Shown here: positions 40,763 to 61,084 of the stretch, in pieces
How the letters are laid out: every line of letters starts with the position of its first letter
Position numbering within the stretch: position 1 is the first letter of the stretch
Origin: Tricharina praecox
Lineage: Eukaryota
DNA: 64,000 nt
Assembly (NCBI RefSeq): GCF_024521635.1
Contig: NW_026250412.1
Location: forward strand, 1,054,001 to 1,118,000
Direction of reading: 5' to 3'
Notes under the pieces: model-generated
Told to the model about the DNA's origin: nothing
Database searches by the model: none
Seen by the model: only the letters and a program-made list of their open reading frames with translations
Made by a program: the position numbers and the translations under genes

Positions 40763-40965
40763 CACGGAAAACCTCCGCGGGGCCTACCTACTACCTACTG
40801 GTCAAGACTCTACCATTATGCCACGCACGCAATGGAGCAATTTGAGCACCAACTCAACACCCGTGGGGGTCACAAAGCCACCTACTTACCGGGGGTGGTG
40901 AAGGTTTTTGTTATGGCGTTGGTTTCCATCGCAGTCAAATTTGGGATTGCACGTCATCTCACTCG
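40763..40965 (+). repeat. Pol III/tRNA-like cassette, degenerate copy C
   Basis: Head CACGGAAAACCTCCGCGGGGCC, tail AAGCCACC...GGGGGTGGTGAAGGTTTTTG, downstream TCACTCG. Confidence 0.6.
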
Positions 40966-42072
40966 TTTACCGAGTGATAACACATGGTTGTTGTGGTGAC
41001 GGAAGGCGCGTGATATCACCTCCTCCCAGGTTTTCATGACCGGTTCCGCCCCGCGCACCTCATCCCAGGGTCCCTTGGTTGATTCCGCCCCGTGCACCTG
41101 ATCCCAGAGATTCTTGATTGATTTCGCCTCGCGCACCCGATCCCGGGGATTCTTGATCGATTCCGCGCCGCGCACCTGATCCTAGGGTCTCTTGGTTGAT
41201 TCCGCGCCGCGCACCTGAGCCCACGGATTCTTGACTGATTACGCCCTGCGCACCTTATCCAGGGGATTCTTGATTGATTCCGACCCACACACCTCATCCG
41301 AGCTTCTCTTCCTCGATTCCGCGCCGCTCGTTGCGGAGATGGTGGCCCAGACTGGGATCATCTTGGGCGCCGCTAGTTTGGCCTCGTCAACGTCCATACG
41401 GCCTGAGGGCAAGGGCCAGAGCGAAGAAGGGTTCACTGGTCTGGGCGTCACTGGTTTGGCCTCCTTAACTTCCATACATCTTGAGGGCAAGGGCCAGCCA
41501 GCACATGGGTTCGCTGGTCTGCTGACCGGCGCCTTCAAGCCCTCGGTTTGCTTCGTGTGCATTTCATTGGCCGTCCGGGACTCGATGCGAAGGCTAGCGA
41601 GGTCGGTGCCGAGAAGCTTGTTGTCCTTCTTGAGGTCGGCCATAGCCTCCAAGAGAAGCTTGTTATCGCTCTTGAGGTCTGCGATGGCCTCCGAGAGAGT
41701 CGCGACTCCAACCGCGATATTGTCATTCGTCTCGTCGTGGAAGTCGAACGCGGTGCTGTGCAATCGCGGTTTCCATTCCGGTCCTCTGGGCTTCTTGCTA
41801 TCCCAAAGGAAGTTTTTCCAGTCGACAGCTGCATAGCGCTCCAAGTCGTACGCGGCTTCGCCGATTTCGTAACTGAGGATCTGCAACAGCTGGCGGATCA
41901 TGTTCTCGATGCAGGTGGCTTTCCGGTTGTCGTCGTTGAGCATGAACTTCGGATCGGGCTCGAACTTGCTGGGTTCGACGCTGCTTGACCGCTGATGACG
42001 CTGATGACGCTGACGCGGCACGTGCACCGGCTGGCCCTCCTTGATCTTCGCGTGCCTGTGGACCTTGCCCAT
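40954..42072 (-). pseudogene. Hypothetical coiled-coil protein with 13-aa C-terminal repeats, interrupted by a nonsense codon
   Basis: ORF 42072-41239 stops at a TAA that replaces GAA in one repeat unit. The same frame continues open to 40954. Confidence 0.6.
41042..41327 (-). repeat. 39-bp coding minisatellite, ~7 units (DQVRGAESIKNPR-like)
   Basis: Recurrent GATTCCGC(G/C)CCGCGCACCT.ATCCC.GGGATTCTTGATT units. Confidence 0.9.
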
Positions 42073-42553
42073 CGTGAACGGGCGTGAAGTCGAATTTTAT
42101 TCCGAAAAGGGAAAGGTACGCCACTTCTTGGCAAAACTGTGGAGGAGTGGGTGGTTGTCGGTGGTGGTGGTGGGATGAGGTTGTCGAACGTTGGACGGCC
42201 GAGATGATGGCTCGAATAAAGGTCCGTAGTGCGGAGGACGGGCGACCGAGCGACGAGTGCCGTCTTGAGAGGGTAGCCTTTGTCGAGACAATGAAAGTCT
42301 GAAGATATAGAGATGTCGCTGCTGTTGATATTATTGCTATATCGAATAAATCATCTTCATCTATCTTTAGCAAATGTGTTTTCTTTTTTAAAATCATTAC
42401 ATTTGACCTTAGTATGACCCCAGAAAGGGCTTATGGCCGTCGAATGCCCAGACGCTAGGAGACGAGTTTATAGATAATCCTTTTTTCTCTGTTTCTTTCC
42501 TATGTTTGGGCCTCTTCTCGCCTCCACGGCCAGCAGCAGAAGGACAAGGCGTG

Positions 42554-42785
42554 TCACGTGATGGTGACGGCCGAGTGATGTCCGGTGCACCACCTGTCAC
42601 TCCAAAAACAAAAACCATCACCACCCATGTGGGTAGCTTGGAACCCCAAGAGCAGGGGCTTTCGCCCCGGGTTAAACTCAGAGCTTCCCTTGACTCCCCT
42701 CGCCGATTGCATGGCCTAGGTAGTTGACCACTAGACCACGCGGGTTTTTTCGTACTGGAACCATGAATTTGAAAAATATAAACTG
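42554..42785 (-). repeat. Pol III/tRNA-like cassette, subfamily A copy 1
   Basis: On the minus strand: TATA-like element, A box TGGTCTAGTGG, B-box-like GAGTTTAACCC, GGTTCCAAGCTACCCACATGGGTGGTGATGG, TTTTTGTTTTT, then TCACTCGG..TCACGTGA. Confidence 0.8.
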
Positions 42786-43352
42786 GTAGGTGCCACCCCG
42801 CGCCAGAAAAGAACAACAACGGAATTCCGCCTACATATCCGTTCCTACACGGCGTCACCAGCCGCTCAGCTTGATACCGGTTCCCTATTACTCTCCGCTC
42901 AACCCTCCCCGATCAACCCTCTTCGTCGAACACCGGTAAGAAAGAGAGAAAAGGAAAGAAAGAAAGAAACTCCAACTCAACCTTCAGCGGGCGGCCTGGT
43001 GTGGCTTCCCCTGCCGTGCTCCCTGGCCTGTCCCAGCGATTCAAGTAGGTAGAGTGCACCATTGAAAGAACACTAGGAAAAACAAAATCCGCTCCCTACT
43101 TCGTCTCGCCCGCTGCCTCTTCATCTGGAAATGCCATGAAGGAAGGCGTGGGATAGAACAGCGGTTTTACAGACGGCTTTTTTGCCAACACCACTCCAGG
43201 GCGGAGGTAGGATCGAGAGGAGAGCACACACAAAGGAACGAGGAGATATGGAGGTTGATCTTCTATTCGGTATATGATGGTCGCTAAAGAAGAAGAAGAA
43301 GACGATGACGATGACGACGGAACCACTCGGTTGACCCCGCCATGGCCGCCAA

Positions 43353-43423
43353 CGTTGGTTCCCACCAGCGTTGATTCCCACCAGCGTTGATTCCCACCAG
43401 CGTTGATTCCCACCAACGTTGAT
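43353..43423. repeat. 16-bp tandem repeat (CGTTGATTCCCACCAG) x4
   Basis: Read directly from the sequence. Confidence 0.9.
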
Positions 43424-43712
43424 GCTCCGTAGTACTAACCACTTTAATTTTCGCCCGCCGACAGGTCCTCCTCTCACCCTACCTCTCGCTCCACCACACG
43501 GATGTTGTATGGTGAAGGTGATGAACGGGGATAAATATGCGATGCCAGGAATATTCGGCCGCGAGTCACGTATGGCATGGTGGTGGTGGCTGATCGACAA
43601 TTTACTTATTACTGGGGATAATACGATGGGTTCGTTTCTCTCCTCGAAGCGTGACACCCGATATGGGTCTCTTCTCGTCTCGCCTCCACAGCCAGCAGCA
43701 GCGCAAAACGTG

Positions 43713-43950
43713 TCACGTGATAGCTACCTCCGAGTGATATGGCGTTCCCCGTCCGCCATGAAAAAAACAAAAACCATCACCACCCATTTGGGTAACTTGG
43801 AAGCTCCAAGAGTTGAATACATAGGCATTCACCCGGTCTTGAACCGGGGACTTTCCCTCAGCGCCCCTCGCCGATTGCATAGCCTAGACCACTAGACCAC
43901 GCGGCGGTTTTTTGGTGCTAGAAACATGAACTCGAAAATTATGAAGTGGT
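43713..43950 (-). repeat. Pol III/tRNA-like cassette, subfamily A copy 2
   Basis: Same motif order as copy 1; B box GGTTCAAGACC. Confidence 0.8.
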
Positions 43951-45038
43951 GGGTGCCCCGCCATGAATAATAACAACGGCGGAGCGCATGGATAATTCCT
44001 CCATCTTACGCTGTAGTATCGCCTTTTTCGGTGCTGCGGTGCTGGCTTCTATGCCACCAGGAGATCATACTCAGCCGCGATTCGCGGAGGGCCTTGTGGA
44101 CAATGGACACCTGGTGACACGCTTCTCACTGAGGATAATATGGCGTGATTTCTTTTCTTCTCGCCTCCATGTTTTGTTTCTTTAATCACCATAGCATTCG
44201 ACCTTACTAGATCATGGCTGTATCACATGTCTGGTTCCACCCCACTGTCTCCGGCTGCTAACCGCGAGCTCGGTGTGGGTTTTGCTTTTGCTCCCCTCCA
44301 GGCCCTCTCTTGCAACATACTAAGGAAATCACAGATGTTGAGAGGCAGAGAAGAAGGAGAGAAGGAACAAACGAACCACTTAGATCCCCACATCCCACTC
44401 AACCCCGCTCGAGGCTACCGCTAGCTGGTCTAGTAACTCATCTCTATGTTCCCTTGGATCTGCCACTTCCTGATCCTGCTCACCCCGAGCCTTCCTCATG
44501 GCTCTCACTGTTACTCTCACCCAATATATTGCCGACGACGAGATCGTGGCCTAGCGGAGAAACAGCGGAGACTCTCCTCCCCGTTCCGCTCCCTTTCTGC
44601 TGCCATATCCGCCGCCGCTTTTCAACCTCTCCCCTAACCTCTCTAACCCGGTGACCAGCGTATTTTGTTGGGTCCGCGCCATTGCCCTAATGGCAGCGGC
44701 ACGGCCGAACTCTAACGCCTACATAGGGGGAGACTCTTGGACCCAGGTACGTCCGCTTGCGTCAGGTCCATGGATAGCCTGTCTCGTCTTGAACCTGTCT
44801 CTTATATCGTCTTACCTCGATGGGGAGATTTGGGTTCCTCGCCGTACGTTTTGCCTCCTTTATTCCCTCGATGATGAAGTTTATCGTAGGGATTCTCGCC
44901 TACATAGCCGGCAGTGCGAGGAAAACCGCGGGGAGATTTGGGTGGAGAGCACTATGGAAACGGTATCGAGCATGCGGCTACTTAAGATCGAACGCAATTG
45001 ATAATTGAACAAAAAAAAGCCGAACACTTAAAAGAGTA

Positions 45039-45260
45039 TCACGTGATACCTAAGTCACTTCCGAGTGATATGGTGTGCCCCGTCCGCCACGACAAAAACA
45101 AAAACCATCACCACCCATGTGGGTAGCTTGGAAACCCCAAGAGCAGGGGCTTCCACCCTGGGTTGAACCCAGAGCTTCCCCCGACTCCTCTCGCCGATTG
45201 CATGGCCTAAGTAGTTGACCACTAGACCTCGCGGGGGTTTTTTCGTGCTGGATAGGTGCC
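45039..45260 (-). repeat. Pol III/tRNA-like cassette, subfamily A copy 3
   Basis: A box AGGTCTAGTGG, B box GGTTCAACCC, same tail, terminator and TCACGTGA. Confidence 0.8.
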
Positions 45261-45523
45261 ACCCAACATGGACTGGATCAACGATGCAGTACCGCCCGCC
45301 AGATCGGAGTGCCTGCACGATTCTTCCATTCCACGCTGCGGTGTTGCCTGTTTGGATGCTCCTCCGGGCACTGGCTTCGATGGTTCCGCCAGGATATGTG
45401 AACAAAAATAAATCCAAATGCTATGCCAGAGATACTCAGCTGCGAGTCTCGTACGGCCTAGTTGCCAGCTGGCCAACCGCGTCTTACTGTATATATTATG
45501 GCGAGGTCTCTTCTATTCTCACG

Positions 45524-45850
45524 TTTTTTTTTTGTTAAATCATTAATTGCATTTCCTCCTTCTCCTCCTTCTCCTCCTCCTCCTCCTCCTCTTGGTCTAG
45601 TGGAGCTCTCCTCCCTACATCCGTCGTTCCTAAAAAAATCTAGTATCGCATCGCTGCACCACTCATCGGCGAGCAATTCCGCTATCGATCACCTCTCTTT
45701 CCTTCTCTTCGTCACCTTCCCAACCTTCTCCCACAAGGCTTTCTGCTGGCTTCTCAACCGTGAGCAATGCTTGAACAAGTGCTCTCGTGATTGCTTGGTT
45801 GGCCTGTTGCACCGTGATCGTCCTCCCGCTTCTTGATCCACTTAACCGGT
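45524..45850 (-). mobile_element. Degenerate 3' end of a non-LTR retrotransposon (Tad1/I-like LINE)
   Basis: Minus-strand translation KWIKKREDD..RCNRPTKQSREHLFKHC..QQKALW..IAELLADEWCSDAILDF (ORF2 C-terminal CCHC region), then a purine-rich 3' region and an A-tail at 45524-45533. Confidence 0.75.
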
Positions 45851-46644
45851 CTGCGCTCTCGATCCAAGGCTGCTTCCCGGCATGTCCCTGTTTATTAGTC
45901 ATCAACCACGGCCGGGCTACGAAGTAACGTGGCCCCCCAATACTCCATGTTGTCTGAATATCTCTGTAATCCCGGACATGAGTAAGAGGCATGCCCGCCC
46001 AAGTCAAATGTTACTGCTGTAGCCGCTGCGGAGCAGCTGCAGTGGGTGGTATTAAGAGCCGTGACAGTGACAGTGACTAGTTTAGCCGCCGACGCGCGAG
46101 GTGACTTCGACTAGTCTCCAGCTAGTGGCGTGTCTTGTTTACTCGCTCGTCCCATCTGACGAGCAAGTTTTGGTGGGGTCTAGCTGTTTGGCGGCGGCGA
46201 AAATGCTTGGAACCTAGCGGCTCCTAAAACGCCTACAAAACCCCCCTCTACTCCTCCTTCTCTCCTTCTCTTTACAACCATCACAGCTTCCTTTCCTCGT
46301 CGGCTACCTATTCACCCTTCCTTCCTTCCTTTCCACCCTCCATCCCTACTTCCCTTCCATCTAAGCCGGAGCTCAATCCTCGAGGTACGTCATTTTCTCT
46401 CCCCCGCTTTTTACTTCCAGGATAACCTTACAGAACTATCCTGCTCAGCCGGAGTAGCGAGGAACCGAGGAATCCGTGCAACCGGTCTACAAAGTAGACT
46501 ATTGCAAGAGACGGATCCAACCCTCGAGGCTGAGCAGAAAAGATTCAAGGACGGGGTTCTCTCTTCTGCTGCCGGCGAAGTTCTTTCCCCCTTCCGCCAG
46601 GAGTCCAAGTCGGGTGAGAGCCGACTTGCTCCCGGTGGATGGCT

Positions 46645-47050
46645 TCTCCGAAACCGGGTGACAGACGGTTTTGTGTTGACGAGGAATAAAAAAACAAAGA
46701 AACTATAACTTCCGAGTTCTACGCGTATAACCTGGTCTACTACCCCTCCAAGTTATACGCGTAGGTTTTGTTCCTTTGCTGTGAGAGAGCAAAGGTCTTT
46801 CCTCCTGGCCATGCATCGCATGTGTGAGAGACATGCCACATGCATGGCCAAGGCCCAAGAATCTCCGAAACCGGGCTACAGACGGTTTCGCGATGATGAA
46901 ACAAAAAAACCAAAGAAGGTATAACTTGGTCTACTACCGCCCCAAGTTATACGCATATAACGTGGTTTATTAAACCCCCACGGTATACGCGAAGGTCTTC
47001 TTCCTTTCAGAGCAAAGGTCTTTCCTCCGGCCATGCATGCGCCATTGGCC
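46645..47050. repeat. Imperfect ~200 bp tandem duplication
   Basis: CTCCGAAACCGGG..ACAGACGGTTT..GGTCTACTACC..CCAAGTTATACGC..GAGCAAAGGTCTTTCCTCC..GGCCATGCAT occurs twice in succession. Confidence 0.8.
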
Positions 47051-48439
47051 AAATGCTGTTGCTCTGGCCGCTGTGCGAGAGAACGACATTGACCTGGTGC
47101 GGGTTGGGTGCTGCTGGGGGCGGTAAGTAGTAGTGGGCGTTCGATGTGGCGAGCGGGCATGCACGCCGAAGAACTAAATCTTCTCCTGCAGCTGGTGCAT
47201 CGTTCGGCTTCGAGGACGGTGCGGTTGCGATCTCGATCTCAATCGCTGTTACCGTTGATTCCCGTGTAGTCACAGGATCATCACTCGGGTCATATTTCGC
47301 GGACCTCGTATGTAGATTCATGGATTCCGCTCAAAAGTCGCCCCTATATACAACATAGACGGCCCCCAATGCCCATACATGTGATGTATATCATATGGGT
47401 ATAGCTACAGCGGAGCTCTAAATATGTATCGCCGACTCGGCGAGAGGCAGAAGTGATGGAGGAGCTATCGACGAGAGGAAACGGATGTAATTACCGTGCA
47501 TGTTTACGGCAGTCAGCGGGGGGGGGGGGGGGGCGAACTTAAAAAGCTATCCGAAAGGCCCCTCTCTGTCCCTATCTATCTTTCATCATCCTTCACAGAA
47601 TAGATGACCATCATCTACCTCGTCTTTCCTCTGTGTGGCCCCCTCCCCGCCGGCGGCGTGGAGGGGGTTGGCAATCTATCCGGCTGCAAAACGTAATGTT
47701 TGGTTTTGGAACGGGTGTTGTGGAATTAGTGGTGATGCTGAGATGTAGCAAGTGCTGATTGTGGAGGGGGGTTACATTTTCAAAAGCGAGGAAGTCACCA
47801 GCAGAGATCATGGCTCAGTCGTAGCGAATTTCCCGGAAGGTGAGGGGTGCATGCCCCAAGGTCCCAAGCTGTTACAAGGATAGCAACCTTGGGGAGGACG
47901 CTCTTTTGCTGCGGTTCAAACCTGGGTTGCTGCTTTTCTTTTCGTTTGTTTTTGCCGGAGTGCCTAGCTAGATTATTACTTGCAGGGAGGATCATCACGA
48001 AATCATGGAAAAACACTCGTTCGTGAAGCACGTGATGTTTTGGAACGGGTGTCATGGAATTTGTCAAATATACTGAGATCGACAGGAGGATTGGTAGGAA
48101 GAAATGCCCGTTTTTTTTGCTTGCTTCATCTTCTACTCCGGGCGGGTGCCCCTCTATATATACAGAATATATCTGCCGTTGGGAGATAGACCCGCCGGCG
48201 AGCGCCGACTCCAGTCCCACTGATAGAAGTACAGCGCACCAAGGATATAATACTAAGAAAAGATAGATTTGGCTCCCTAATCTCCCTAATACGCCTCGCT
48301 CCCTGCCTCTTCATCAGGAGATGCAATGTCGGAAGTTGTGAGGAGAAGCAGCGGCAGTGAACTCAAACTCCTCAACCTCAACGCCCTCCTCGTCCCCGGC
48401 TGATCTCCTCTCTACCTGTCTATCTTCTCGCTCTCTTAG

Positions 48440-48700
48440 CTTTCACTCGGCATCGCATCGTGCTCTGGGACGTCTCTTCACCTCCTGAAGGTATTGGCCG
48501 GTGATGTAGTGTCCTGTCTTCAACTGGTAGACCGTAGAACTTTAAGGCCAGGCACCGTTTGGGGGCTATGACCGGGATCGGGTCGGGTATCTGACAAGGT
48601 TTCCGGCTGTACCTGCATTCTATGTTGGTTACTTTGGCTTCCGCCCACGCACACCATGGCCTCTTTCCACCTTGCCTCCAGGATTCCGCGGCTCAGGTAT
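48440..48700 (-). mobile_element. Second LINE ORF2 remnant
   Basis: Frameshifted minus-strand translation ..EARWKEA..PDP..APKR.LA.KFY / YQLKTGHYITGQYL, typical of Tad1-like ORF2 just before the CCHC finger. Confidence 0.65.
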
Positions 48701-50405
48701 ACGAGCGACGGGGATGGTAGCGGCCTAGTGAAGTACTGACTGAGGTAGTGGGGGCTCCCAAATCCGCGAAGGGTTTGAGAGAGGGAGAGATCTTCAATTT
48801 ATTTCGCATGCAGCCTATCTAGACTATGCCCAACCGTCCGCAAAGGGTGAGTCCCTTGAGTGGATAGGCGTGACGAACGCGTGCGAGTGACTTTATATGC
48901 ACGGCGCCAGACCTTACTCAACTAGCTGAAACAAAACCCTTCACCATCCTGGCGGGAAACTTAAAAGCCTCAGGAGTCAAGCTGCACTCCTAAAGTTGAA
49001 TGTGTGGCTCCCAAGCTACGCGATTTATTTTCCATACTGGAAGATAATATGTGCAAGTTACAAAGCGAGTGATGTCTTGTTGCCGTCGAGATTCATGGAT
49101 TCTGCTCAACAGTCACCCCTATACTGTACTGCACAGACGGTTCCCATACATGTGATGGAGAGCGCATGGGTATAACCACCACTGGAGCTCTAAGTATGTA
49201 TGACCAGTCGGAGCTTTGGCATGCACCGCCGGGAGAATTTTATACCGCTTGATCGGTATTGCAGGACCATGATCAGCGACGCTTGGGACTCGAGAAAACA
49301 AACTCAGACTGCTTACTCTGACCGACCGGCCGATCGAGTCATACGGAACTAAAGACGCCCATCCGTGAACACCAAGCAAACGGGAATCAGGGGATGAGCG
49401 GCAGTAGGGAAAGTATCAGCTGCCGGTCGAGGCGCAGCTCGACTCCTTGTATCATACATCACTCCATTCGTACCTGCATACGCTCATCGATTCATTCTCA
49501 AGCAGGGACTGTCCGCAGTTCGAGGCATCTACGTGTCATGCCAGCGTGTCGACACAAGAGCAGCAGCCAACGGAAGGGTATCCATCCTAAAGAACGGGTA
49601 CTTAGCCAGCCACCACGGATACATACTACCACCGTCGGCTCGGGTTTTGTCCAGCGAGCATGATTCCATAATTTCGCTGAAGTTAAACTCATTACGGGTT
49701 GTTGGTCTCAGTCTCGGATCCCTGGTGAACCGGCGCCAAAGTACTTGTGTCCGGTGTTCCGCGACGTTTTAAATAACAATATGTTGGGGGATATGTATGA
49801 TGGGTATCGACAATGAATATCGTATTAGCGGTATGTACCTGATGTCTAACGACGTAGATAGGTACGAACGTGGAGTACTGCAATAGGTGCCCGACGGTGC
49901 GCGATTTGTACCCTGAATGATACCTACCTTGCACCGCCTTGTCTTGTATCTGATGACTCGGCTGATACACTACCCAGTCGGTCGTGCCACGCGCGATTAC
50001 ACTGGAACAACTGGCTGATACCCGATGATCGGGTATTAATAGACGAGGTACCGTCGGCGGCATAACTAATAATTAGACGCTTGCGCAGCCGAGCCGAGCC
50101 TCAGCCTTAACTGTCGGAACGTCAGCGCCGAGCAGGGATAGGGAATATTATTCACGGTGGAGACAAGGCAAGTCGGCTATGTACATTGCGTGTGGAAATC
50201 CACACACTCTATCAACTCTTCTATTTACAGGATGCCTACGAGAGAGAATGAAGGAATTTATAAGAGCAGGACAGGATCTCAAGTTTTCTTCTCTTTCGGA
50301 TCCACCATCATCAAACAACACCTCGACGCATCGTCTACTATCATTCGCTTCATTCATTCAAACCCTCCAAATTATCCATCTCGCTACACAACAGAAATCA
50401 CCACA

Positions 50406-51080
50406 ATGCAATCCAAGATCATCTCCGTCGTCCTCTCTCTCGCCGCTCTGAGCGTTGCGAGCCATATCGAGGCCCGCCAGGAGTCTCTCTCCACCCTCAT
50501 CTCGCAATTCAAGGCCTCGACCTCCACTGCCTACACCGCCGTCCCTGAATTCTCCGCCTTCCAATCCGGCCAGGCAGACGCAATCGTGGATTACATCTTC
50601 TTAACGGCCTTTGCGACCCCGTCTACTACCGCGACTGCCACGTCCGAGGAGGTTGACACATCCGCCATGCTGGCGAACTTGGCCTCGATAACGAAGGTGG
50701 TGCACTCCCTGGACGACCAGTTCCTCGCCACGCAGACGATCCTGCCGACCGCCGTCAAGGAGAGCATGAGTGCCGACCGCGCCTCGTTCTACTCGCTGAT
50801 CGCCAAGGCGACGGATCAGCTGCCGGGTGCCGATATCGACTGGGTCGATCCTGGTAGTTTGGATGCCTCTCCCTCGCCCGTGCCGACTGGCGTCCCTAAA
50901 GGCAGCTGCCCGGTTCAATGGGCTTCCGGAGTAGTGTTCTTGCCCGATACCGTCGACTGCGCTAGCTACTACGTTTGCAACGCGAATGGCAAGCCCGTCA
51001 AGTTCACCTGCAGCGAGGGCACTTATTTTGACTTCACCAGGCTGGTGTGCGATTACACCGCCAATGTCAAGTGCACTTAG
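50406..51080 (+). CDS. Secreted Ser/Thr-rich protein with a C-terminal CBM14 (peritrophin-A) chitin-binding domain
   Basis: Signal peptide MQSKIISVVLSLAALSVAS. Six-cysteine CP...DCASYYVC..G....TCSEGTYFD....CDY..NVKC. TATA element TTTATAA at ~50257. Confidence 0.85.
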   Translation: MQSKIISVVLSLAALSVASHIEARQESLSTLISQFKASTSTAYTAVPEFSAFQSGQADAIVDYIFLTAFATPSTTATATSEEVDTSAMLANLASITKVVHSLDDQFLATQTILPTAVKESMSADRASFYSLIAKATDQLPGADIDWVDPGSLDASPSPVPTGVPKGSCPVQWASGVVFLPDTVDCASYYVCNANGKPVKFTCSEGTYFDFTRLVCDYTANVKCT

Positions 51081-51749
51081 TGGAGGAGATGGAAAGCAGA
51101 TGGTGGCGGGTGGCGGGCGGCGAGGGGTTTTTTTAATGCATGTTTGGGTGTATTTATAGGACCGTTGCGGGAGTAGAGGAACTGGTTGGAACTGGGCCGG
51201 GTGGGTGGGAGGAACAGATATGCGAGCTGATGTGGGACTTGGTTAATAGATGATATCCTGGGATAAGAATTATTGAAATGCTATGAGACTCTATTCCAGC
51301 TGTATGATAATACCAATATTGTGATGTTCAACACCTTACAAACCACGCCCACAGCCCACCATTTTCCCCTCATCTCTAGAGCCCTCGAGTATAACATATG
51401 TGGCAATGTCGCATTTACAATGATGGGCACATGTTTTAACTGGCTCAGTAAAAATAGAGTTTAAAATACCTGGGCTCTGAAAGGGCACATTTCGTCATCT
51501 GACGTTGATAATATATTGCTTTTAGGAGCTCATATGGCTGACCGCCGGCGTGCTCAATAGACAGTCTGTTAATATTCGCGGCGACGGCAGTGAGAAGTAC
51601 TTTCTGCGGCGAAGTAGGGCTGATACTGTAGGACAGAATAGGAGAAGGATACGTACGCCTGGTGTAGGAAGCCCACAGAGTTTCGGGTAGCGAATAACGG
51701 AGAAGAGCAACAATGCTTGCCAGCTGTGTGACGAAGAGAGCCAAGCTTG

Positions 51750-51965
51750 GGGGTTTATAAGGGTCGACAGCAATTTTCATTCACGGGAAAAACCCCCGCG
51801 TGGCCTTGTCGGCTAGGACACCTACACGGAGCTAAATGCTCGCCGTTCAACTCCCTGGGGAAGAGGGGTTTTCAAGCCACCCACCGGGGGTGGTGATGGT
51901 TTTTGTTTTTGTTGTGGGTGTGACGGGTTGAGCACACTATGTCACTCGGCGCAAATGTCACGTGA
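51750..51965 (+). repeat. Pol III/tRNA-like cassette, subfamily B copy 1
   Basis: TTTATAA, CCCCGCGTGGCCTTGTCGG (A-box-like), GTTCAACTCC (B box), CAAGCCACCC..GGGTGGTGATGG, TTTTTG, TCACTCGG, TCACGTGA. Confidence 0.8.
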
Positions 51966-52375
51966 TACCTGCGCTGCCGACATTCTGTATGTTATGTAAA
52001 TCATCATTGAATTTGACCTTAGTGAATCATCGTATTCAGGGTATCTCCTCCGGTACCGTAACTTCTCCGTTGCCGTTCACAGTCTAGAAGAGCTGTCGGC
52101 GAGAGGAGGAAGTGAAGGTGGACTACTGTCGGCGGGAGGAAATGAATGTGACTCTACACTCTCGATCCACGGCTACTTTCCGTGTCCTCAGTTGGTTGCT
52201 AGTGGTCAACCACGGCTAAGAAGAGTTTCCTCTCTGTCAGCTGCGCGAGAGGATGATATCGGCTTTGTGTGTGCGGCGAGCGCTATTCTTTTTTCTTCTT
52301 TTTTTTCTTTGTTTAATCAGTCATTGCTTGCGTGTTTGTCCCTATTATTTCTTTGTTTTTTGTTTAATCAGTAAT

Positions 52376-52425
52376 TACTGTATGGTGAAGGGGGGGGTAA
52401 AAAATGCCCCCTTCACTATACAGTA
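52376..52425. mobile_element. 50-bp minimal MITE (TIRs only), TA-flanked
   Basis: TA-CTGTATGGTGAAGGGG ... CCCCTTCACTATACAG-TA. Confidence 0.75.
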
Positions 52426-52476
52426 CTTGCGCGTTTGTCGCTGGAGTACCTATTCGTCGATGTGGGAAGGAGTTCA

Positions 52477-52643
52477 TACTGTATCGTGAAGGGGAAGGTA
52501 AAAAATACGCTTTGTGGCCGTATCGGTACGGAAAAAAGCGTATCGATACGGTGAAAACACGTATTTTAACCGCATTTATACGCTTTTTCCGTATCGGTAC
52601 GGCCACGAAGCATGTTTTTTACCCTCCCCTTCACTATACAGTA
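52477..52643. mobile_element. Near-palindromic MITE of the same family with TA TSD (Tc1/mariner-type)
   Basis: TA-CTGTATCGTGAAGGGGAAGGTAAAAAA ... TTTTTTACCCTCCCCTTCACTATACAG-TA, with long inverted arms. Confidence 0.85.
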
Positions 52644-53459
52644 CTTACTCACTCGGGGGTCGAATGATTTCGTGTGATGTCAAAGGTGCGTCGACACCTT
52701 GGAATGTAGCGGTGTTTGCTGAAAAGCAAACTTTTGAGTCGCGGCTAGTGGGCTAGAAGTGGTTGCTTGGAATCCACCCACTTCACCTATAAAATACCAC
52801 CTTTCCTATCAACTCTTCCTCCCTTTCTCCTCCCTCTCCTCCACTCATTAATTTCCTCTCCTTCTTTCCCGTCCGGCACTAATTGGTGATTCATGCTACT
52901 GACTTAGATTAATTGCGGTTTATATAGAAGAAAATAGGTGATACCGTGCCATACAGTTCCCGAGTAACTTGGTGGTATACTGTACTGAACTTCGTGATCA
53001 ACCCATTGCCTACCATAACGCCGCACTCGGGGCGGCCAACCGTCCGTCCAGTCCTGTTTTGAGGTTGCCCGAGACGGGACGGAATTAGTTGGGCTGAGGA
53101 AAATCAGGACTACAAGAGGCCTGCGGATGGGAGGTGATTAAAGAAAACGAGATTGATGGATTCAGAAAACAGCAGCAGAACAGAATGCTTCAAAAAAAAC
53201 GTAACGTAGCGATGATAATACAAGGTGATTAACTTGTGAACTGATGAACTAATGAGGACTGATGAAGACAGATGATGAACAGAGACCGACAACAGGAAAA
53301 TAAAAGTAGTGGCAACAGAGAACGATAAACGTTGAATGAGCGTATCGGGTCTGAATCAGGTCCCACCTCCATAGCACAACATAGATCCTAATAAAGTTTC
53401 CTCTCTCCGGCGCTCGCCGATGGTCCCAAGCAGCCTCTGCCTCCGCCCCCCCTCACTAT

Positions 53460-54290
53460 CTACATAAAGGCCGTATCCGCCCTGCTCACAGACCCCCGTC
53501 CTCTCCCTCGACTCGACAGCACCCTCGACTCTTCCGGGGCCTTGCCTCGGCCGCGCCTTGAAACCGGCCCCAGCCTTAACCTTGGAAACTCAACTCTTCC
53601 CGGGCCTTGGCTTGGCCACACACTCGACTCTTCCGGGGCCTCGTCCTGGCTTTCCCGCGATAAGCTTTCCCCGCGTTGGGCCCGCATTACATCGAGCATC
53701 GGCCGTATATGGTGATAGGACCTCAACGAAGCCCTTATCTCATCCTTAAACCCACAATCTTCTTTCAGAAACGTGTCGACGACCTCCGCACTCAGATTTC
53801 CTTCTATCACTATCTTTGCAAAGCCGAACTCTTCTTCGGTGGAAAATGGGAAGTATGGATTGAAGTTCGTCGGGATACGTTCATCTGGGGGGAGGGATGA
53901 GCCCCGAGGGCTAACATCTGGGGACGTAAACGTAACATGATGCCAGTCTTCCAGTGCGGGGCTGGCTTCATTTTCAGGATGGACGTCATAATTGTACGCG
54001 GTGGCGGCAGGGCCGGCTTCATCTCCAGACATCGTCGTACCGTTGGCGGCGGCGGGGCCGGCTTCGTTGGCAGAACCGCTATTCGGGAGGAAGGTGTGCG
54101 AGGAATGGTCTATGTGTTTTGCCGGGTGTCTTCCGTGGTGCGCCATGTCGGCTTCTCGCTCTCTCGCCGCATTCAGTTTTGCCTGGTATTCTGGATGTTT
54201 GGTTTCAATGTGTCTGTGAAGCCACACTAGCCGTTTGAATCTCCGAAAACACCACCTACACAGTAGATCGTAGGGACCAGCCGTCGGCAT
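53460..54290 (-). CDS. C2H2 zinc finger plus Plavaka (CACTA-related) transposase N-terminal-like fragment
   Basis: CRWC..F...LHRHIETKH, followed by NPYFPFSTEEEFGFAK...LSAEVVDTFL, which resembles the N-terminal motif of fungal Plavaka-type transposases. No catalytic core. Confidence 0.6.
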   Translation of the reverse strand: MPTAGPYDLLCRWCFRRFKRLVWLHRHIETKHPEYQAKLNAAREREADMAHHGRHPAKHIDHSSHTFLPNSGSANEAGPAAANGTTMSGDEAGPAATAYNYDVHPENEASPALEDWHHVTFTSPDVSPRGSSLPPDERIPTNFNPYFPFSTEEEFGFAKIVIEGNLSAEVVDTFLKEDCGFKDEIRASLRSYHHIRPMLDVMRAQRGESLSRESQDEAPEESSVWPSQGPGRVEFPRLRLGPVSRRGRGKAPEESRVLSSRGRGRGSVSRADTAFM

Positions 54291-54877
54291 TGCTCAGGTG
54301 TAATAGGTGCTCTGGTGTGGTAGGTGCTCTGCCGTGATGGGTGAGAGAGACAAATATGGTTCTTGCCACGGTTGGATAGTTGGATGTTAAACTTTGGACA
54401 GCGCCATGCGGACGTCACACAGCTCATTGGATAAAACATGAGACGAACGAATACATACCCCGCTGATAACCGAGTCCTCTATACTCCTCCTTGCCCTGCC
54501 AGTCGCGACTGAATAGTGCCTCCTCGCCCTGCTTGCCCTGCTTGCCCTGCTCAAATGTCCTCTCGCTGCCGTGGATGCATTATCGTATTCGCCGAAGAGA
54601 TGCCCGTTCCGCTGCCAGAGACTCGGTAGTAGGTACTAGATTCGCCTACGAAATGCCCTCTTGCTACGCTGGAGACAGCTAATGTCCTACATACCTAGAT
54701 ATGCAAGGTGAATTTAGGTATGGCATTTTAGACGTTTGCCGTTAAATTTACGATACCAGTAATACCTAGCCGCGAGGCCTAGTGGCGGTGACCCATCGGC
54801 AGACTTCTTCACTGATCACTGAGGATATCATGGTGGGGTTTCTACTCTTCTCTTCTTGCCGGCAACGCAAAAGCATA

Positions 54878-55090
54878 TCACGTGATCTAGCCGAGTGACA
54901 TCCCGTGCTCCTCCCGTCACGACAAAAACGAAAACAAAACCTTCACCACCCCCGGTGGGTGGCTTGGAAACCCCTCTTTCCCAGGGAGTAGAACGGCGAG
55001 CTTTCAGCGCCGGGGCAGTGGCTTAGCCGACAAGGCCACGCGGGGTTTTTTTCCGTGAGTGGCGTTTGCTGACGACCTTTATTAAGCCCC
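54878..55090 (-). repeat. Pol III/tRNA-like cassette, subfamily B copy 2 (inverted partner of 51750-51965)
   Basis: The reverse complement aligns with copy B1, including the upstream GGGGG.TT.ATAA.GGTCG.CAGCAA. Confidence 0.8.
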
Positions 55091-55251
55091 CTTCGCTCTG
55101 CGCTCTGTTACCAGCGGGGTCCTACAGATGCGCATACACGACGATGCATCAGCTCCATACCTAGTAACTAGAATATACATACTCCTACTCCCGATGCGTT
55201 CCGGGTCCGCGTGCACTGGCCGGCAGGATTCTTCCCTTCCTTTTATAAGAC

Positions 55252-55734
55252 CAGTGTTCTACATAGTCCAGCCCGTCCGTCCTGGCCCTCGGACCGGACT
55301 GGACTGTATCTCGGCAGTCCGTCCGGGAGCGGTGTTCGGACGGACTAGTCCAAAAGGTTTTGAGGTCAGGACGGACTGCAGCCCAATGCCAAGAAACAAA
55401 GAAAACCGTTTTCCTTCCGTAATCGCAAAATCACGGCAAACTAAGGCAGAATAGAAAGCGACGGAAATTATCACGTGATAGAAATGTTCCACACTAAAAT
55501 GTCACGTCATAGGGGAGAGTTTTTTTCTGCCTTAGTTTGGCGTAATCACGCGAGTTCGAGAAGAATTTTGTTTTCTTCATTTCTTGGCATTGGACTGCAG
55601 TCCGCTCCAGTCCTTGCGATCCATGGACGGGACGGACTACTTTTCGGCAATCCGTCCGAAGGGCCGGACTGGAACAGATCTTGGCAGACCGTCCAGTCCG
55701 GACTGCAGTCCCGACCGGACTATGTAGAACACTG
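55252..55734. mobile_element. hAT-type MITE
   Basis: 18-bp TIR CAGTGTTCTACATAGTCC/GGACTATGTAGAACACTG; 8-bp TSD TATAAGAC/TATAACAC; subterminal GGACT/AGTCC motifs; internally palindromic. Confidence 0.9.
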
Positions 55735-55751
55735 TATAACACTACCCCGGT

Positions 55752-56991
55752 CCCTAGGCTACAGGGAATGCGGCAAGCCGCATTTAAGTAAATGCGAGCC
55801 TGCTTTTAAGTAAATGCGAGCCTGCTTTTAAGTAAATGCGAGCCTGCTTTTAAGTAAATGCGAGCCTGCTTTTAAGTAAATGCGAGCCTGCTTTTAAGTA
55901 AATGCGAGCCTGCTTTTAAACTGGCTCTTGTCACAAAATGCGGCTCATTTGCTCTTATAATTCAGGCTTCTGCTAGTAAATTGGCCTAAGCCGAGTCAAT
56001 AGGCGTTTGACAATAATTGCGGCCAGTTTACAATAGTCAAATTGAGCTCTTATGCCTAATTTGGCTGTCGATACTCATCCCACCAACGTTTATTCCCAGA
56101 AAAGTTGATGCCCACTACTAACAATATTTGTTTCCTCTCGCTGACAAGAGGCCGAAGTAAAAGAGAGTTTACAAAAGGACATGTTGAGATAACGAGCTTA
56201 AGTTTTAACTTCTTTTGGTGCCGAGGTCAAAAACCTAGCCACGCTGGTTCACCGCCGCCGGTGCTTCAATACTGGGCTCGCTAACAGTTACCCCTCTTGC
56301 TGATAGCTCATCCTCTCACCAACACCTCCTCCTCTCATCAACACCTTCTCTCATCAACACCTCCTCCTCTCACCAAAACCTCCTCCACTCACCAACACCT
56401 TCTCCTCTCGCCAACAACGCGCCATCATTCCGCCACACAGTATCCCCATTCACTGCTCTTCGCTCTCTGAAATTGGTCTTTGGTCTTCCTACAGCAGGTA
56501 CTATTGTGCTTTTATGTTGTCCTATAAAGGTACCGCATCAGACCTGCCTCGCTGACGATACCATACCGACTTCACCGCGGACACTAGCAGACTTGCTATT
56601 GCGCACGCCGGTCATGTTGAATGTCTGTTGAGATGTCAGGGTGAATGCCGGCGAGCGGGGTAGAGGCTGGAGAGCGGGGTGGAGGCTGGAGAGCGGGCAA
56701 AGCTGGGGAAAGCTAGGTTCGGTTTGCTTACGCGCGGAGGGGAGATATATGTGTATATATTGGGCGAGCAGCAGTAGCTATAACCTAAAATAAATATATT
56801 ATCAACGCCAGCTGAGCAACTGTGCCCTTATATCCATAGAGCCGTAATAGAGACAAGGGCCGTAATAGAGCCAAGGGCCGTATTAGCGCCAAGGGCCGTG
56901 ATAGTGCCGTAATAGAGCCGTAAGAGTGGCCGGATTAGAGACGTGCCGATTTACCTTTATTGCGACTTGCCGCATTTCTTGTACCCTAGGG
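55752..56991. mobile_element. Non-autonomous TIR element with subterminal tandem arrays
   Basis: TIR CCCTAGG(C/G)TACA(G/A)G(G/A)AATGCGGCAAG(C/T)CGCA at both ends. 22-bp array inside the left end; GCCGTAATAGAG-type array inside the right end. Confidence 0.75.
55785..55918. repeat. 22-bp perfect tandem repeat TAAGTAAATGCGAGCCTGCTTT x6
   Basis: Read directly from the sequence; no spacers. Confidence 0.95.
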
Positions 56992-57559
56992 GGTTGAGAG
57001 AGTGATGACTCTTCATCCTCAACTAGATAGGTATTGGAGATCTTTTGTAGCCTTCCGAGGTATACTATTGGTACATGGGAACTTTGGAACTTTGGAACTG
57101 ATCGATAGGATAAAGATGGAGATATGTACGCCGGCCCCTCCAGTCCCGACTCCCTTTGGCGGCCAGCCAAAAACAACACTGTATGCACCAAAGTTGAAAC
57201 GCCATGCTTTCGCTAAATACACCCAATCGCCGTTCGCTGCTTCCCGATTCCCAGTTAACACACGCATCCGCGCTACCGCCGGTCACGGAGCCCGATACTA
57301 TTAGAGCTTCCACGAGACCACCGGATCCCTTTGGTTCCGACGCTATCCTCTACCTACCTGTTTCCTCGGGCCGGTAATTGTATGTACACCCTCCCCGCAC
57401 AGAAGCTCACGACCGCCAAGCACCCGCGAAAAGCCCGGAGAGTCCATCTTTCAGCCGGCGTACTATCACCGAGCGCGCCAAGCATCGGCAAAGAGGCCGG
57501 AAAGCCCAGAAAGCCCATCTTTCAGCCGACGGACTATCCCGGAGACCGTATCAGTACTT

Positions 57560-58832
57560 TCAGACCACCTTCACATCAGGACACTCCTCGCACTCACCGT
57601 CGAAACTCTGCATCTGCCTACTCCCTCTCGGATTCCCTCGGACATTCCCCCACTCGACATCGCCCTCCGAGTCCGGAATCTCCAGCACGAACCTAATCGG
57701 CCCCGCCGCGTTCTCCCAGCAAAGGAACAAGCCCGCCACGCTCCCCAGCCCTATCAGTAGCGGAGCCAGCTGCCCGAAGGAGCTAACGCTGTTCACGCCC
57801 GATATCCGGTTCCACGCGATCATGCACTCGACTGAGCACACGACGAAGACCAGCCGTGCCAGCGCGGAGCTCATGCGCCCCAGCGGCTGCAGGATCCCGC
57901 AAAGCCAGACCAGCGAGCCGAGCTCGGGGTCGTACTCGCCGTCCTCGAGCACCCGGGCGCAGAGTGGGTGACCTTGCAGCAGCGGCTCGGATTCGGCGAA
58001 GTGGAAGGTAGGCTCGGGTTCGGGCGAGGCCGTGGTTGTGGTGGGTGTGCCTGGGGCGGATTCCGGCGTCGAGTGGAACGCCCAGTAGAAGAACACGCCG
58101 AACAGGCCAGCCGTGCACCCGAGAACCAGCGCGACGGCTACCCACACGAAGCCGACGATGTACAGCAGCTTCATGAGTGTGCGGAACCAGCCGAACAGGT
58201 CTACGGGAAAGAAGAAGAAGCCGTGCGCTGTGCACGGCGCCGCGCGCACCAGCCGGTCCATGCCGCCGAACCAGTACCACACCGAGTATCCCATTGTGGC
58301 GGTCTCCAGGAGGAGACCGAGCATGTTGAGCGCGGTGAAGAGAACCAGCAGCTGCAGTCGCAGATCCTGCGAGTTCGAGTTGGCGAGGGAGGCGAAGCGC
58401 GGGAGCTTTGATGATGCCGCCATACATGTCGCACTGAGCGCGATCATGATCGCCGCCTCGGCGACGCCGAAGTCGCGATTGCTGCGGGTGTTGTGGAGCG
58501 TCGCGATGAACATGCCGGCGCCGAAGAACGTGTTGGCTACTCCGATGGTCCATGCCGATTCCTGCTCGTACGCGAAGGCGATGGTCGATGATAGGCCTGA
58601 TCGTACTCGTCAGCACTTCCTGGCAGTACGCACAGTCGGCAGTGGATCGGAACGAACCAAGAAGATACGCGCTAGTCCTGACCCCTAGCCCATAGATTCC
58701 GTTGCCTTCGATTCCGCAAAGTTGCCGGTCTGGTACTACCGCAGTGCCGTTGAATATCTCGGCATTCGAGACCGTGACAGCGAGAGACAACAGAATGGCA
58801 CCCAGCGCTAGATGGGTATCACGGAAGGTCAT
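57560..58832 (-). CDS. Multi-pass membrane protein of an uncharacterised fungal family, 1 intron
   Basis: Signal-like N-terminus, GNGIYGLGVRTSAYL, intron ~58597-58657, several TM segments, IAWNRISGVNSVSSFGQLAPL motif. Confidence 0.75.
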
Positions 58833-60425
58833 GGTCGATCGCGGGACGTCGGAGTACCTAAGTGAGCTCGAAATCCTGGACCACGTACAATCGTCCGAAG
58901 CGTGCTTGCTTGTAGTCGCGCCGGTGAAGCCGATAGTGTCTTTCTGGAAATTCGTTTATGCCGAGCTGAACGTACAAGACAGCAGGCGACAGGATCGACG
59001 GCGAATGGCACGCCTTAAGTACTTACATACTCGGCCACTTTTAACCGGAGGCCTCGGGGTAGTTACAGTGTTACACCAGGTATTTGCTGCATGCCAACAT
59101 CGTGTTTCGTCTCCGCATTGATTGGCCACGTCGAGAGACGCCTTGTAGTGTACCTGCGCCGCAAATACAGGTAGCTGCAGGATGCGCAGTCGAGACAAGC
59201 GCTTTGTTGGCGTGCGCAGCGATATGGACTAGGTGGACACGGCCATGGACCTTCGCCGACCTCGGTACTTCTCCGTACGGCCCGTACTGGGCACAGGAAG
59301 CAACCCGAACAGGAGACCTAAGCGAAGTTGCGTGCATACCAGCCACGCTAGCGGACTGACGTGCGGTGTAACTTTACGACAAGCGTAAGCGAGGGATGGA
59401 ATACGAGCTCCCACCGCCGAGACGCTGTGCAATGTGGGGGCTTGGGCGAGCCTGCGGTCTCTGCAGGATTTAACCTTTTTTCCCTCTGGCTGCCCCGGAC
59501 TCTGGCACAGAAAGCGGGGTGGCTGTGGAAGAGGCACTTGCGGGGAATTTGCACTGGAATCACTTGTGGCCTCATTTTGGCAGTTCAAGGCAAATGCTGA
59601 GCGAGTCTGTCATATGCTTAAGCCATACTGGTAGCATAAGCCGATATAAACCCATGTTGGATGGAGTAGATGCTCGCTTCCTGTTACGCCGTAATCTCGC
59701 TGCAGTACCTGGTAGGTAGGGTAGAGTACCTAGCCCACCGCCTCGCATACATACGCGGATCATTCGCATCGTTGGTGTAATACTACGGTCTGGAATCGTC
59801 ATCTCGTTCTGCGATTTCATGAACTCGACGGAAAATACGGCGAAAGCCATATTCACCGATGATTACGGTAGACCACGGCGAAGAATCTGGCGGTTATGCA
59901 CAGAATCTGTAAAAGTACTTGGGGATTGCCACTTCGTCGTCCCCGGCTTCCGGGCCCCGGCTCCGTATGCGGTCTTGATTCCGCATCGTCATTCAGTTTC
60001 GGCGTTGGCTTCGACTGCGGCCGGGGCTTCAAGTAGGTATCTAGATCAAACCTTGCAGGTAAACACCGATGTTCCCGATACCCAGCCCATTAGGGTCGTT
60101 CTTTCCGTTGATACCACAAGTTCGAACTTCGATCGGATACCGCTGGGGTTTTAAGGACGTATGCATTCAATGCCGCAAAGGCGAACGACGAAAGAATGCT
60201 GACTGCTGAGTGCTGACTGCTGCCAACTTCGTGCTGCGGCAACGGATCGCCAGTCGTGTGGGATTCCTGGGACCGTGGCGTGATCGGTAAGGAGCGGTAT
60301 CGAGCTGGCGGCCGGCGGTCGCTGACGGCTGGGTAGAAACAGTTATGTAACCTGCCATGATCTACCAAGGTTGAATGGAATAATACATGTTAAAAGTACA
60401 AAAACACCAGCAGCGCATAGGGAAA

Positions 60426-60625
60426 ACGTGACACTACCGAGTGATATACCGTGCTCCACCCGTCAAGTCAAAAATAAAAACCTTCACCACCTCCGGTGGG
60501 TGGCTTGGAAACCCCTGTTTTCCAGGGAGTCGAGCCGCGAGCTCTCTGCGTAGAGCGGTGGCCTAGCCGACAAGGCCACGTGGGATTTTTGCCGTGCTAG
60601 AAATATGCATTTTACAAATATAAAG
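60426..60625 (-). repeat. Pol III/tRNA-like cassette, subfamily B copy 3
   Basis: GTGGCCTTGTCGGCTAGGCCAC hairpin, GGCTCGACTCC B box, GGGGTTTCCAAGCCACC..GGTGGTGAAGG, TTTTT. Confidence 0.8.
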
Positions 60626-61084
60626 TGGTGTGTGCCCCCCCTCCACCCCCCCGCAAAGCGACGGACCAGGAACAGCGACGAGATGCCGTTCGCCAGCGGC
60701 CGGATCGAAGCCTCTACGTGGTTCTTCCATCTCACACTGCGGTGTCGCCTGTTTCGATACTCCGGGGCACGTGCACTGGCTTCGATGCTTCCGGGAGACC
60801 GATGATGTCGGCGTTTTCCTGATTATTGGTACGGTAGGGGAGACTGCATGTTCCGACTCCACAGTGCTGGGAAGCGCCGGGACGGGCCCACCAGGCATCG
60901 ATCGACCATGGGCCGGCAACGCGACAACCCGGCGACACCTGCACAGAAGAATTCAACGTACGTATGAGATCTCGGCCCGCAGGTCCAGCGTCCGGGGATT
61001 GCTATGCGTCTCCACGCATATAGCATCGACGTGTCGGGTAGGTATGGAAGCACCTCTGCGCCGAGAAGCCCGACTCCCGTGTGT

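Follow-up and report, generated by a model that had tools for sequence, protein, structure and literature searches.

Candidate RNA polymerase III-type small-RNA cassettes clustered in an ascomycete genome, and LINE insertions beside their relatives in a second fungus

In the 64,000-nt stretch of the Tricharina praecox genome analyzed here (contig NW_026250412.1, positions 1,054,001 to 1,118,000; hereafter the window), eight copies of a short repeated unit, or cassette, are confined to a single 20-kb cluster at 40.7-60.7 kb. The cassettes may be lineage-specific (Ascomycota) small-RNA units of the RNA polymerase III (Pol III) type that are related to short interspersed nuclear elements (SINEs) and have multiplied as DNA, together with their promoter and downstream flanks; we give this reading a probability of roughly 0.5. 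It is favored because the cassettes have a fixed anatomy and spacing, are present in a second genome, display a gradient of conservation along the unit, and in that second genome lie next to an insertion hot spot of a long interspersed nuclear element (LINE) with target site duplications (TSDs). Pol III transcription, the ends of the RNA, its fold and any function are steps that we infer from the sequence.

Copies, anatomy and conservation of the cassettes

The 3' motif GGGTGGTGAWGGTTTTT, searched for with up to 2 mismatches, occurs at eight sites in the window: 40893+, 42610-, 43769-, 45100-, 48933-, 51888+, 54935- and 60476-. Shuffled windows contained a mean of 0.02 such sites, and eight were reached in none of 100. 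The repeat family proposed in an earlier note on this DNA is therefore real, as all seven copies listed there are among the eight sites; the count of seven itself does not stand, since a decayed eighth copy at 48933 (-) had been overlooked. The unit is ~290 nt long, and an alignment of the eight copies with their flanks comprises 445 columns, 44 of which are invariant. A search of the window with an nhmmer profile built from the eight copies, and thus circular for them, found no further copy, including none in 1-40 kb. In self-BLAST, homology between any two copies ends after ~74-294 nt and the flanks beyond are unrelated; copies 43769, 45100 and 60476 have additional upstream similarity in common.

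Six of the copies form two subfamilies (Table 1). The predicted RNAs measure 143-147 nt in subfamily A (42610, 43769 and 45100) and 117-119 nt in subfamily B (51888, 54935 and 60476). Copies 2-4 are arranged in tandem, 1159 and 1331 nt from one to the next; copies 6 and 7 are an inverted pair over 160 nt, with 84% identity. Copies 40893 and 48933 are degenerate, and overall five or six of the eight look intact and two or three decaying. Copy 1 has degenerate A and B boxes and, as its downstream element, the palindrome TCACTCG..CGAGTGA; copy 2 has ATCACTCG and CACGTG downstream. A 28-nt inverted repeat (86%; 44991-45018 and 45526-45553) encloses copy 45100 and ~250 nt of its upstream region. 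It was considered as a pair of transposon ends and rejected, as it has no TSD and is absent at the other copies. The units had been proposed as possibly element-borne, which the window does not support: neither transposon termini nor TSDs were found around them.

Table 1. Coordinates of the cassette copies in the window and of the LINE-bearing metagenome loci
Feature	Position	Strand	Details
Copy 1, decayed variant	40691..41007	+	putative RNA 40766-40909; 3' motif 40893-40909
Copy 2, subfamily A	42511..42830	-	putative RNA 42610-42752; TTTATAT at -32; A box TGGTCTAGTGG
Copy 3, subfamily A	43673..43989	-	putative RNA 43769-43915; A box with 0 mismatches; B box GGTTCAAGACC with 0 mismatches
Copy 4, subfamily A	45023..45329	-	putative RNA 45100-45245; TATA-like box deleted
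Copy 5, decayed	48830..49130	-	3' motif 48933-48949 with 2 mismatches; stems weakened; TCACTCG retained downstream
Copy 6, subfamily B	51689..52002	+	putative RNA 51786-51904; TTTATAA at -34; A-box-like TGGCCTTGTCGG; B box CGTTCAACTCC
Copy 7, subfamily B	54838..55149	-	putative RNA 54936-55054
Copy 8, subfamily B	60386..60687	-	putative RNA 60476-60592; B box GGCTCGACTCC
LINE-bearing metagenome loci	L023:4724-5520; L027:~840-1102; L001, L004, L007, L008, L011, L013, L014, L017, L021, L026, L031		

The cassette elements follow a fixed order. A TATA-like box comes first, then AAAACCCC, a hairpin bearing the A box, a variable middle containing the B box, GGGGTTTCCAAG, a 7-bp hairpin, GAWGG and T5(G)T5. 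The alignment of the eight copies agrees with the order given in the earlier note, and this order fits the layout of a type 2 Pol III gene with an upstream TATA-like box. A G-rich stretch precedes the run of A residues (A-run) together with the TATA-like heptamer, which lies 32-34 nt ahead of the A-run in five of the seven copies assessed; copy 48933 has no clear A-run and was left out of the spacing counts. The heptamer is absent in 40893 and deleted in 45100, the copy for which its loss had already been noted. A T-run of at least 4 immediately follows the 3' hairpin in 8/8 window copies, mostly as T5 and then a second T-run. Measured from the start of the 3' motif, ATCACTCG is found at 46-52 nt and CACGTG/T at 61-70 nt in six of seven copies, which places ATCACTCG ~30 nt past the T-runs and CACGTG(A) ~15 nt further. 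At up to 1 mismatch, ATATCACTCGG has 8 sites in the window against 0.88 expected, and 7 of these are at cassettes.

The flanks are homologous among the window copies from about -50 upstream to about +100 past the terminator, as had been claimed for the conserved DNA flanks, and this argues that the cassettes are not ordinary retroposed SINE copies. The downstream ATCAC-type motifs may be a binding site for a separate DNA-binding factor, outside the Pol III model. A further ATCAC-type site on the cassette strand is included in a 37-nt motif (68-100% identity) at 43609, 44126, 45484 and 54816 (+). Relative to the cassettes, this motif lies ~85-160 nt downstream in two cases and ~340-385 nt upstream in the other two. 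The first 24 nt of this motif at 44126 had no second copy at up to 3 mismatches.

To extend the comparison beyond the window, metagenome contigs were scanned with a 21-base pattern from the 3' module. The scan yielded 35 loci, 30 of which contain the cassette (nhmmer, E up to 1e-3), 27 in one assembly, 2 in a second and 1 in a third; most belong to a single related fungus. The contigs represent fungal-type genomic DNA and include, for example, a gamma-tubulin complex gene and an RCC1 gene. The metagenome cassettes are 85-97% alike, and their boxes are cleaner than those in the window, with TGGCCTAGTGG and, inside the hairpin, GGTTCGACCC; the A box of full copies is TGGCCTAGTGG, TGGCCTAGCGG or TGGCCTAACGG. 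Sixteen copies are full-length, three are internally deleted (L010, L013, L021) and three are truly 5'-truncated (L012, L025, L015), the remainder being cut by contig ends or strongly diverged (L022). Between the window and the metagenome, alignment is limited to the interval bounded by the A-run and the T-run. Subfamily A shares 68-81% identity with the metagenome copies over ~110-190 nt, and subfamily B is alignable over the 47-nt 3' module only, at 91-98%, which supports the proposed division into a constant 3' module and a variable core. The metagenome copies have a TATA-like box, TTTATGA, at -32/-33 and the pair ATCACTTG..ATCAC downstream, at the same distances as in the window; ATCAC is repeated 2-4 times among the conserved downstream DNA motifs. 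Loci L031:2541-2666 and L017:3-128 overlap at 100% and, when joined, yield a pair of cassettes separated by ~1.1 kb that includes a LINE fragment. Cassettes thus cluster in the metagenome fungus as well, with a spacing that resembles the 1.16-1.33-kb array of the window.

Conservation along the unit was assessed as mean pairwise column identity in 13 full metagenome copies with flanks. Identity is 0.34 far upstream, 0.69 from the TATA-like box to the start, 0.93 in the A-run and A box, 0.94 in the B-box hairpin, 0.97 in the 3' module and 0.62 downstream. According to this gradient, the flanks are homologous, but the promoter boxes and the 3' module drift more slowly. Since flank homology is not expected from a retroposed Pol III transcript, the gradient fits genes or master copies duplicated as DNA, in which the promoter elements and the 3' end of the RNA are subject to selection or conversion.

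If the cassettes are Pol III-type units, TFIIIC would occupy the internal A and B boxes and TFIIIB the TATA-like box ~30 nt before the start, with transcription beginning at or just ahead of the A-run. The product would be ~117-147 nt long, with termination within T5(G)T5. This RNA would close on itself by pairing of 5' AAACCCC with GGGGUUU and would contain the A-box hairpin, a variable middle domain and the near-invariant 3' hairpin followed by a U tail. Copying would have taken place at the DNA level and included the promoter (~50 nt) and downstream sequence (~100 nt); in the window it would have proceeded by local tandem and inverted duplication, and the units would act as genes or 'master' genes, not as retroposed copies.

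LINE insertions upstream of the metagenome cassettes

The metagenome cassettes are most often adjoined by a repeat that represents the 3' part of a non-LTR (long terminal repeat) retrotransposon, a LINE. Proteins related to its antisense open reading frame (ORF) carry RVT_1, endonuclease and RNase H domains, and tblastn places ORF2 segments on the metagenome loci. Fifteen loci combine a cassette of which both ends are present with ~120 nt or more of DNA upstream of it. In 13 of them (Table 1), a 5'-truncated LINE lies directly upstream of the cassette, the exceptions being L010 and L028. It is antisense to the cassette in 13/13 cases, with the (TAAA)n tail distal and the 5' end facing the cassette. 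This 5' end is situated 42-74 nt before the A-run, with L017 as an outlier (102 nt by blastn, ~46 by tblastn). Nine truncation points were found, from 281 to 2052 nt from the tail; because the flanks of L008 and L031 are homologous, some truncations may share an origin, and the independent insertions were counted as at least 5 and at most 9. In L027 a younger LINE lies between an older LINE and the cassette. TSDs surround the LINE alone, with 14 nt in L023 and 13 nt in L027, which argues for target-primed insertions beside an existing cassette and not for template-switch chimeras.

Fixed short upstream distance, fixed orientation and TSDs are the features of TRE5-like insertion, and the metagenome LINE displays all of them. 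Dictyostelium TRE5 inserts upstream of tRNA genes, at ~44-54 bp and in the opposite transcriptional orientation (PMC5911963), and related elements use windows of 39-90 bp (PMC5006619). In the passages cited here, non-LTR targeting directed by Pol III is exemplified only in dictyostelids (PMC5911963, PMC5006619). The metagenome LINE resembles these elements in lying 42-74 nt upstream, antisense and with its 5' end toward the target, and in its repeated nested insertions; it differs in its target, which is no tRNA gene, in its ascomycete host and in the RNase H domain carried by its relatives. By analogy, the likeness suggests a Pol III pre-initiation complex on the cassettes in vivo. The retrieved fungal loci include neither a tRNA gene nor another known Pol III gene and therefore offer no control for LINE targeting.

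A poly-A retroposon of ~110 nt has at least 3 insertion sites within ~100 nt downstream of metagenome cassettes (L001; L013; the L023/L007/L035 group). In L001, ~95-125 nt past the 3' motif, it consists of only its last few bases and the A-tail, with a 13-nt direct repeat (TSD).

Weighing the Pol III reading and its rivals

Single-sequence folds of the cassettes share a plan: AAACCCC and GGGGUUU pair as a closing stem, the A box lies in a hairpin, the middle is branched, and the 3' hairpin is present; the closing stem corresponds to the pairing of 5' AACCC(C) with GGGGTT predicted earlier. The A-box hairpin is present in 11 of 12 such folds, by which alone this helix was judged, as its 3' strand is out of register in the MAFFT alignment. 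Its 5' strand is nearly constant, and its 3' strands vary yet can still pair. The subfamily A sequences are more stable than their dinucleotide shuffles (z -3.37 for copy 2, -3.66 for copy 3 and -4.26 for copy 4), and two metagenome copies are moderately so (z -2.12 and -2.57). RNAalifold was applied to 20 sequences, namely 7 window copies, L022 and 12 metagenome copies, with 48933, L010, L012, L013, L015, L021, L025, copies cut by contig ends and the near-duplicates L004, L006, L007 and L020 left out. All 13 consensus pairs fall in the closing stem and the 3' hairpin, where the only changes are from C to U and give G-U pairs.

Several results weigh against a Pol III-transcribed, structured RNA. 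None of the 13 RNAalifold pairs has a compensatory two-sided change, so that the covariation check proposed in the earlier note came out negative; its statement that stems are kept amid divergence stands as regards one-sided changes and fails as regards compensation. Fold stability above background, found in subfamily A, is missing in subfamily B (z 0.03 for copy 6, 0.72 for copy 7 and -1.48 for copy 8) and in copy 1 (z -0.49); L022 (z -0.59) likewise folds no better than its shuffles. At up to 1 mismatch, the A-box consensus TRGYNNARTGG is found in 3/8 window copies (42728, 43889, 45219) and the B-box consensus GGTTCRANNCC in 4/8 (43835, 45159, 51844, 60526). Neither motif is enriched in the window, with 80 A-box sites against 77 expected from shuffles and 30 B-box sites against 32.6, and the Pol III reading accordingly depends on the joint layout of the elements. 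The T5 run may be a weak terminator, given the conserved hairpin-like stretch and motifs beyond it. ARAGORN detected no tRNA gene in the window and none in the 30 metagenome cassette loci, and Rfam at E up to 10 gave no tRNA match on either strand, its cassette matches being noise at 13.7-14.6 bits; the A and B boxes are thus the one ground for a 'tRNA-derived' label. No cassette transcript was seen in X1, a public run of contigs of this organism that include spliced ones: the 12 pieces listed of the 164 over 40740-60720 all lie off the cassettes, a result that is uninformative, as depth was resolved per 667-nt bin; runs X2-X4 gave 0-2 contigs over the same interval. The LINE has no homologue in the window by tblastn or blastn, and the hot spot is seen in the metagenome fungus only. 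Both TSDs lie in homologous, similar sequence, and the hot spot could reflect sequence-specific targeting rather than targeting directed by Pol III. Finally, the decayed and truncated copies (40893, 48933 and the TATA loss in 45100 in the window, and those in the metagenome) fit a selfish repeat equally well.

Searches for a described family supported the earlier statement that the cassettes do not match normal tRNAs, and they yielded no known RNA family. Rfam 15 at the gathering score contained no cassette family, and it gave 0 matches in 20 metagenome loci. In the literature, the motif strings matched only two unrelated primers, and a description of the family was not found, though SINE tables in supplements might have it. 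A box C/D small nucleolar RNA (snoRNA) on the opposite strand was considered and dropped, as CUGA is not conserved in the window copies.

An ordinary tRNA-derived SINE, multiplied by LINE-aided retroposition of a Pol III transcript and represented in the window by old, decayed copies, would account for the internal A and B boxes and the unit of 117-150 nt, for the many near-identical dispersed copies in the related fungus (30 loci), for the three 5'-truncated copies and for the close association with a LINE family. It also has a precedent in Aspergillus fumigatus, for which tRNA-related SINEs with an oligo-T tract are described (PMC5063351). We nevertheless regard this explanation as unlikely. 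The TATA-like upstream region and ~100 nt past the T-run are homologous in both genomes, and a retroposed Pol III transcript cannot bring these along. The pattern named in the earlier note as evidence for a SINE, TSDs at the RNA boundaries with unrelated flanks, is absent: no TSD was seen at the RNA borders of window or metagenome copies, and the flanks are homologous. On the window copies, no A-rich, simple-repeat or LINE-derived 3' tail was found, and T5(G)T5 runs into unique sequence common to the copies; in one metagenome subfamily, ~45 nt past the T-run, there is an (AAAT)n stretch, which resembles the (TAAA)n tail of the LINE and leaves doubt on this point there. The window copies lie in one cluster with tandem spacings, and the adjoining LINEs are antisense with TSDs of their own, so they represent separate insertions and not SINE tails. 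Less probable again is that the units are DNA sites, that is, TFIIIC/TFIIIB-binding modules serving as insulators or as 'safe landing pads' for retroelements, with the transcript as a by-product. The strong conservation of the promoter boxes (0.93-0.94), the recurrent LINE insertion just upstream, the lack of covariation backing an RNA structure, and the ATCAC repeats, which resemble protein-binding sites, would all suit such modules; conservation peaks, however, at the 3' hairpin module by the T-run, which stays at 91-98% between genomes where the rest differs and which fits an RNA 3' end, having no known role in TFIIIC or TFIIIB binding.

Two further proposals concern a different transcript. 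A TATA-driven RNA of ~200-230 nt resembling a small nuclear RNA (snRNA) made by RNA polymerase II, with GGUUUUUGUUUUUG as an Sm-like site between the 3' hairpin and a second downstream hairpin, seems improbable to us. It would explain a U-rich tract between hairpin-capable stretches, the GTGAC..GTCAC or ATGGCG..CGCCAT past the T-run in several copies, and conservation that extends ~100 nt beyond the T-run. Yet the U-tract is not preceded by an A, unlike canonical Sm sites, the downstream 'hairpin' is weak or absent in 60476 and 40893, no snRNA family matches, and in the metagenome copies the downstream segment reaches only 0.62 against 0.93-0.97 for the RNA body. It is very improbable that the relevant RNA is an antisense one, 'X', read from the opposite strand and joined to the truncated 5' ends of LINE complementary DNA in template-switch chimeras like U6-L1. 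Many LINE truncation points do meet one near-constant cassette boundary, the LINE and the reverse-complemented cassette have the same orientation, and the opposite strand terminates in GGGGGTTTTTT. But the TSDs in L023 and L027 surround the LINE alone; beyond the LINE tail, L031 and L023 resume a short upstream stretch of the LINE-free L010 (seen by eye, not reported by BLAST); the A and B boxes fit only the cassette strand, and Rfam has no match on either strand.

The preferred reading, Pol III-type units multiplied as DNA, can be carried a step further, though only tentatively: the cassettes could constitute an undescribed fungal class of Pol III noncoding RNA with a constant 3' hairpin module and exchangeable cores, with transcription complexes that serve as the landing platform of a LINE inserting antisense ~50 bp upstream. 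If so, they would be a case of non-LTR targeting directed by Pol III in a filamentous-type ascomycete genome. The LINE pile-up suggests position-specific integration beside Pol III genes in ascomycetes with genomes rich in transposable elements, a phenomenon previously studied in yeasts (LTR elements) and dictyostelids, which would help to explain the build-up of repeat islands like the 20-kb stretch. Few fungal Pol III products are known besides tRNA, 5S, U6, RNase P, 7SL and a few SINEs, and the units, if transcribed, would add a lineage-specific multi-copy Pol III RNA in fungi, the near-invariant 3' module offering a handle for finding a binding protein. If the RNA is absent, the cassettes would be an old SINE-like repeat of merely local interest. 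Of the leads obtained, the LINE hot spot of the related fungus holds the most promise.

Genomic setting and comparison with known systems

The window is eukaryotic and ascomycete-like in appearance. From 1 to 40 kb its long ORFs are housekeeping genes, encoding SF3b1, a class I tRNA synthetase, eIF3a and a GH125 protein whose nearest protein-atlas clusters are mostly from Ascomycota. The H/ACA snoRNA snR191 lies at 18857-19115 (+), with the full Rfam model covered at 72.4 bits (gathering score 46), and is the sole Rfam match in the window at that threshold. From ~40.7 kb onward, genes are few and short tandem and dispersed repeats are many. The ORFs between the cassettes have no Pfam family, with the sole exception of the ORF at 50142-51080 (+), which encodes a C-terminal chitin-binding Peritrophin-A (CBM_14) domain (E 1.1e-10) and whose region is overlapped by X1 contigs at 50309-50709 and 50854-51178. 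At 57227-58955 (-), an exact match to a 1604-nt X1 contig with two introns removed (64 and 61 nt, GT..AG) identifies an expressed and spliced gene; its long ORFs have no Pfam family.

A tandem array of a 39-nt unit (~8 copies, 63-81% identity) occupies 40978-41327, beginning ~70 nt past the T-run of copy 1, and is adjoined by a 78-nt repeat present twice at 41364-41519. Short tandem arrays also occur amid the cassettes at 55758-55933 (22-nt unit), 43346-43425 (16-nt unit, recurring at 56080), 56283-56416 (19-nt unit) and 56838-56908 (18-nt unit). Long near-perfect hairpins are located at 55372-55604 (85-nt arms, 78%) and 52470-52650 (67-nt arms, 85%). Below threshold, Rfam matches the former to a plant miRNA precursor family (42.5 bits, gathering score 211), probably a mere response to its hairpin shape. 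A 180-nt direct repeat that is not related to the cassettes is found at 53271-53451 and 61279-61455, 8 kb apart (73-83%).

Among known systems, fungal SINEs of the AfuSINE2 type are likewise short (140-493 bp), have degenerate A and B boxes and an ascomycete host, contain a tRNA-unrelated 3' region before an oligo-T tract, and occur in low to moderate copy number (PMC5063351). AfuSINE2 elements have TSDs of 4-14 bp (PMC5063351), whereas the cassettes have no TSD at their borders and share ~50 nt of upstream and ~100 nt of downstream sequence. The cassettes also differ in not being tRNA-like by ARAGORN or Rfam; the comparison of the two is one of described features.

Vault RNA genes have A and B boxes with upstream elements, paired 5' and 3' ends, a variable core and paralogues in a small cluster, and the cassettes as predicted resemble them in each of these respects. 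They differ in having no match to the Rfam vault model, and vault particles are not known in Ascomycota.

The small RNA genes 4.5SI and 4.5SH of rodents descend from tRNA or 7SL/SINE sequences (PMC10137851). They are described with internal A and B boxes, a TATA-like box at -31/-24 and several copies that have flanks of their own and are not retroposed (PMC10137851), all of which recalls the cassettes. They are mammalian, unrelated in sequence and known from experimentally detected RNAs, whereas the cassette RNA is predicted from DNA alone. As SINE-related small RNA genes with a TATA-like box near -30 that are copied as DNA, they offer the best analogy to the cassettes.

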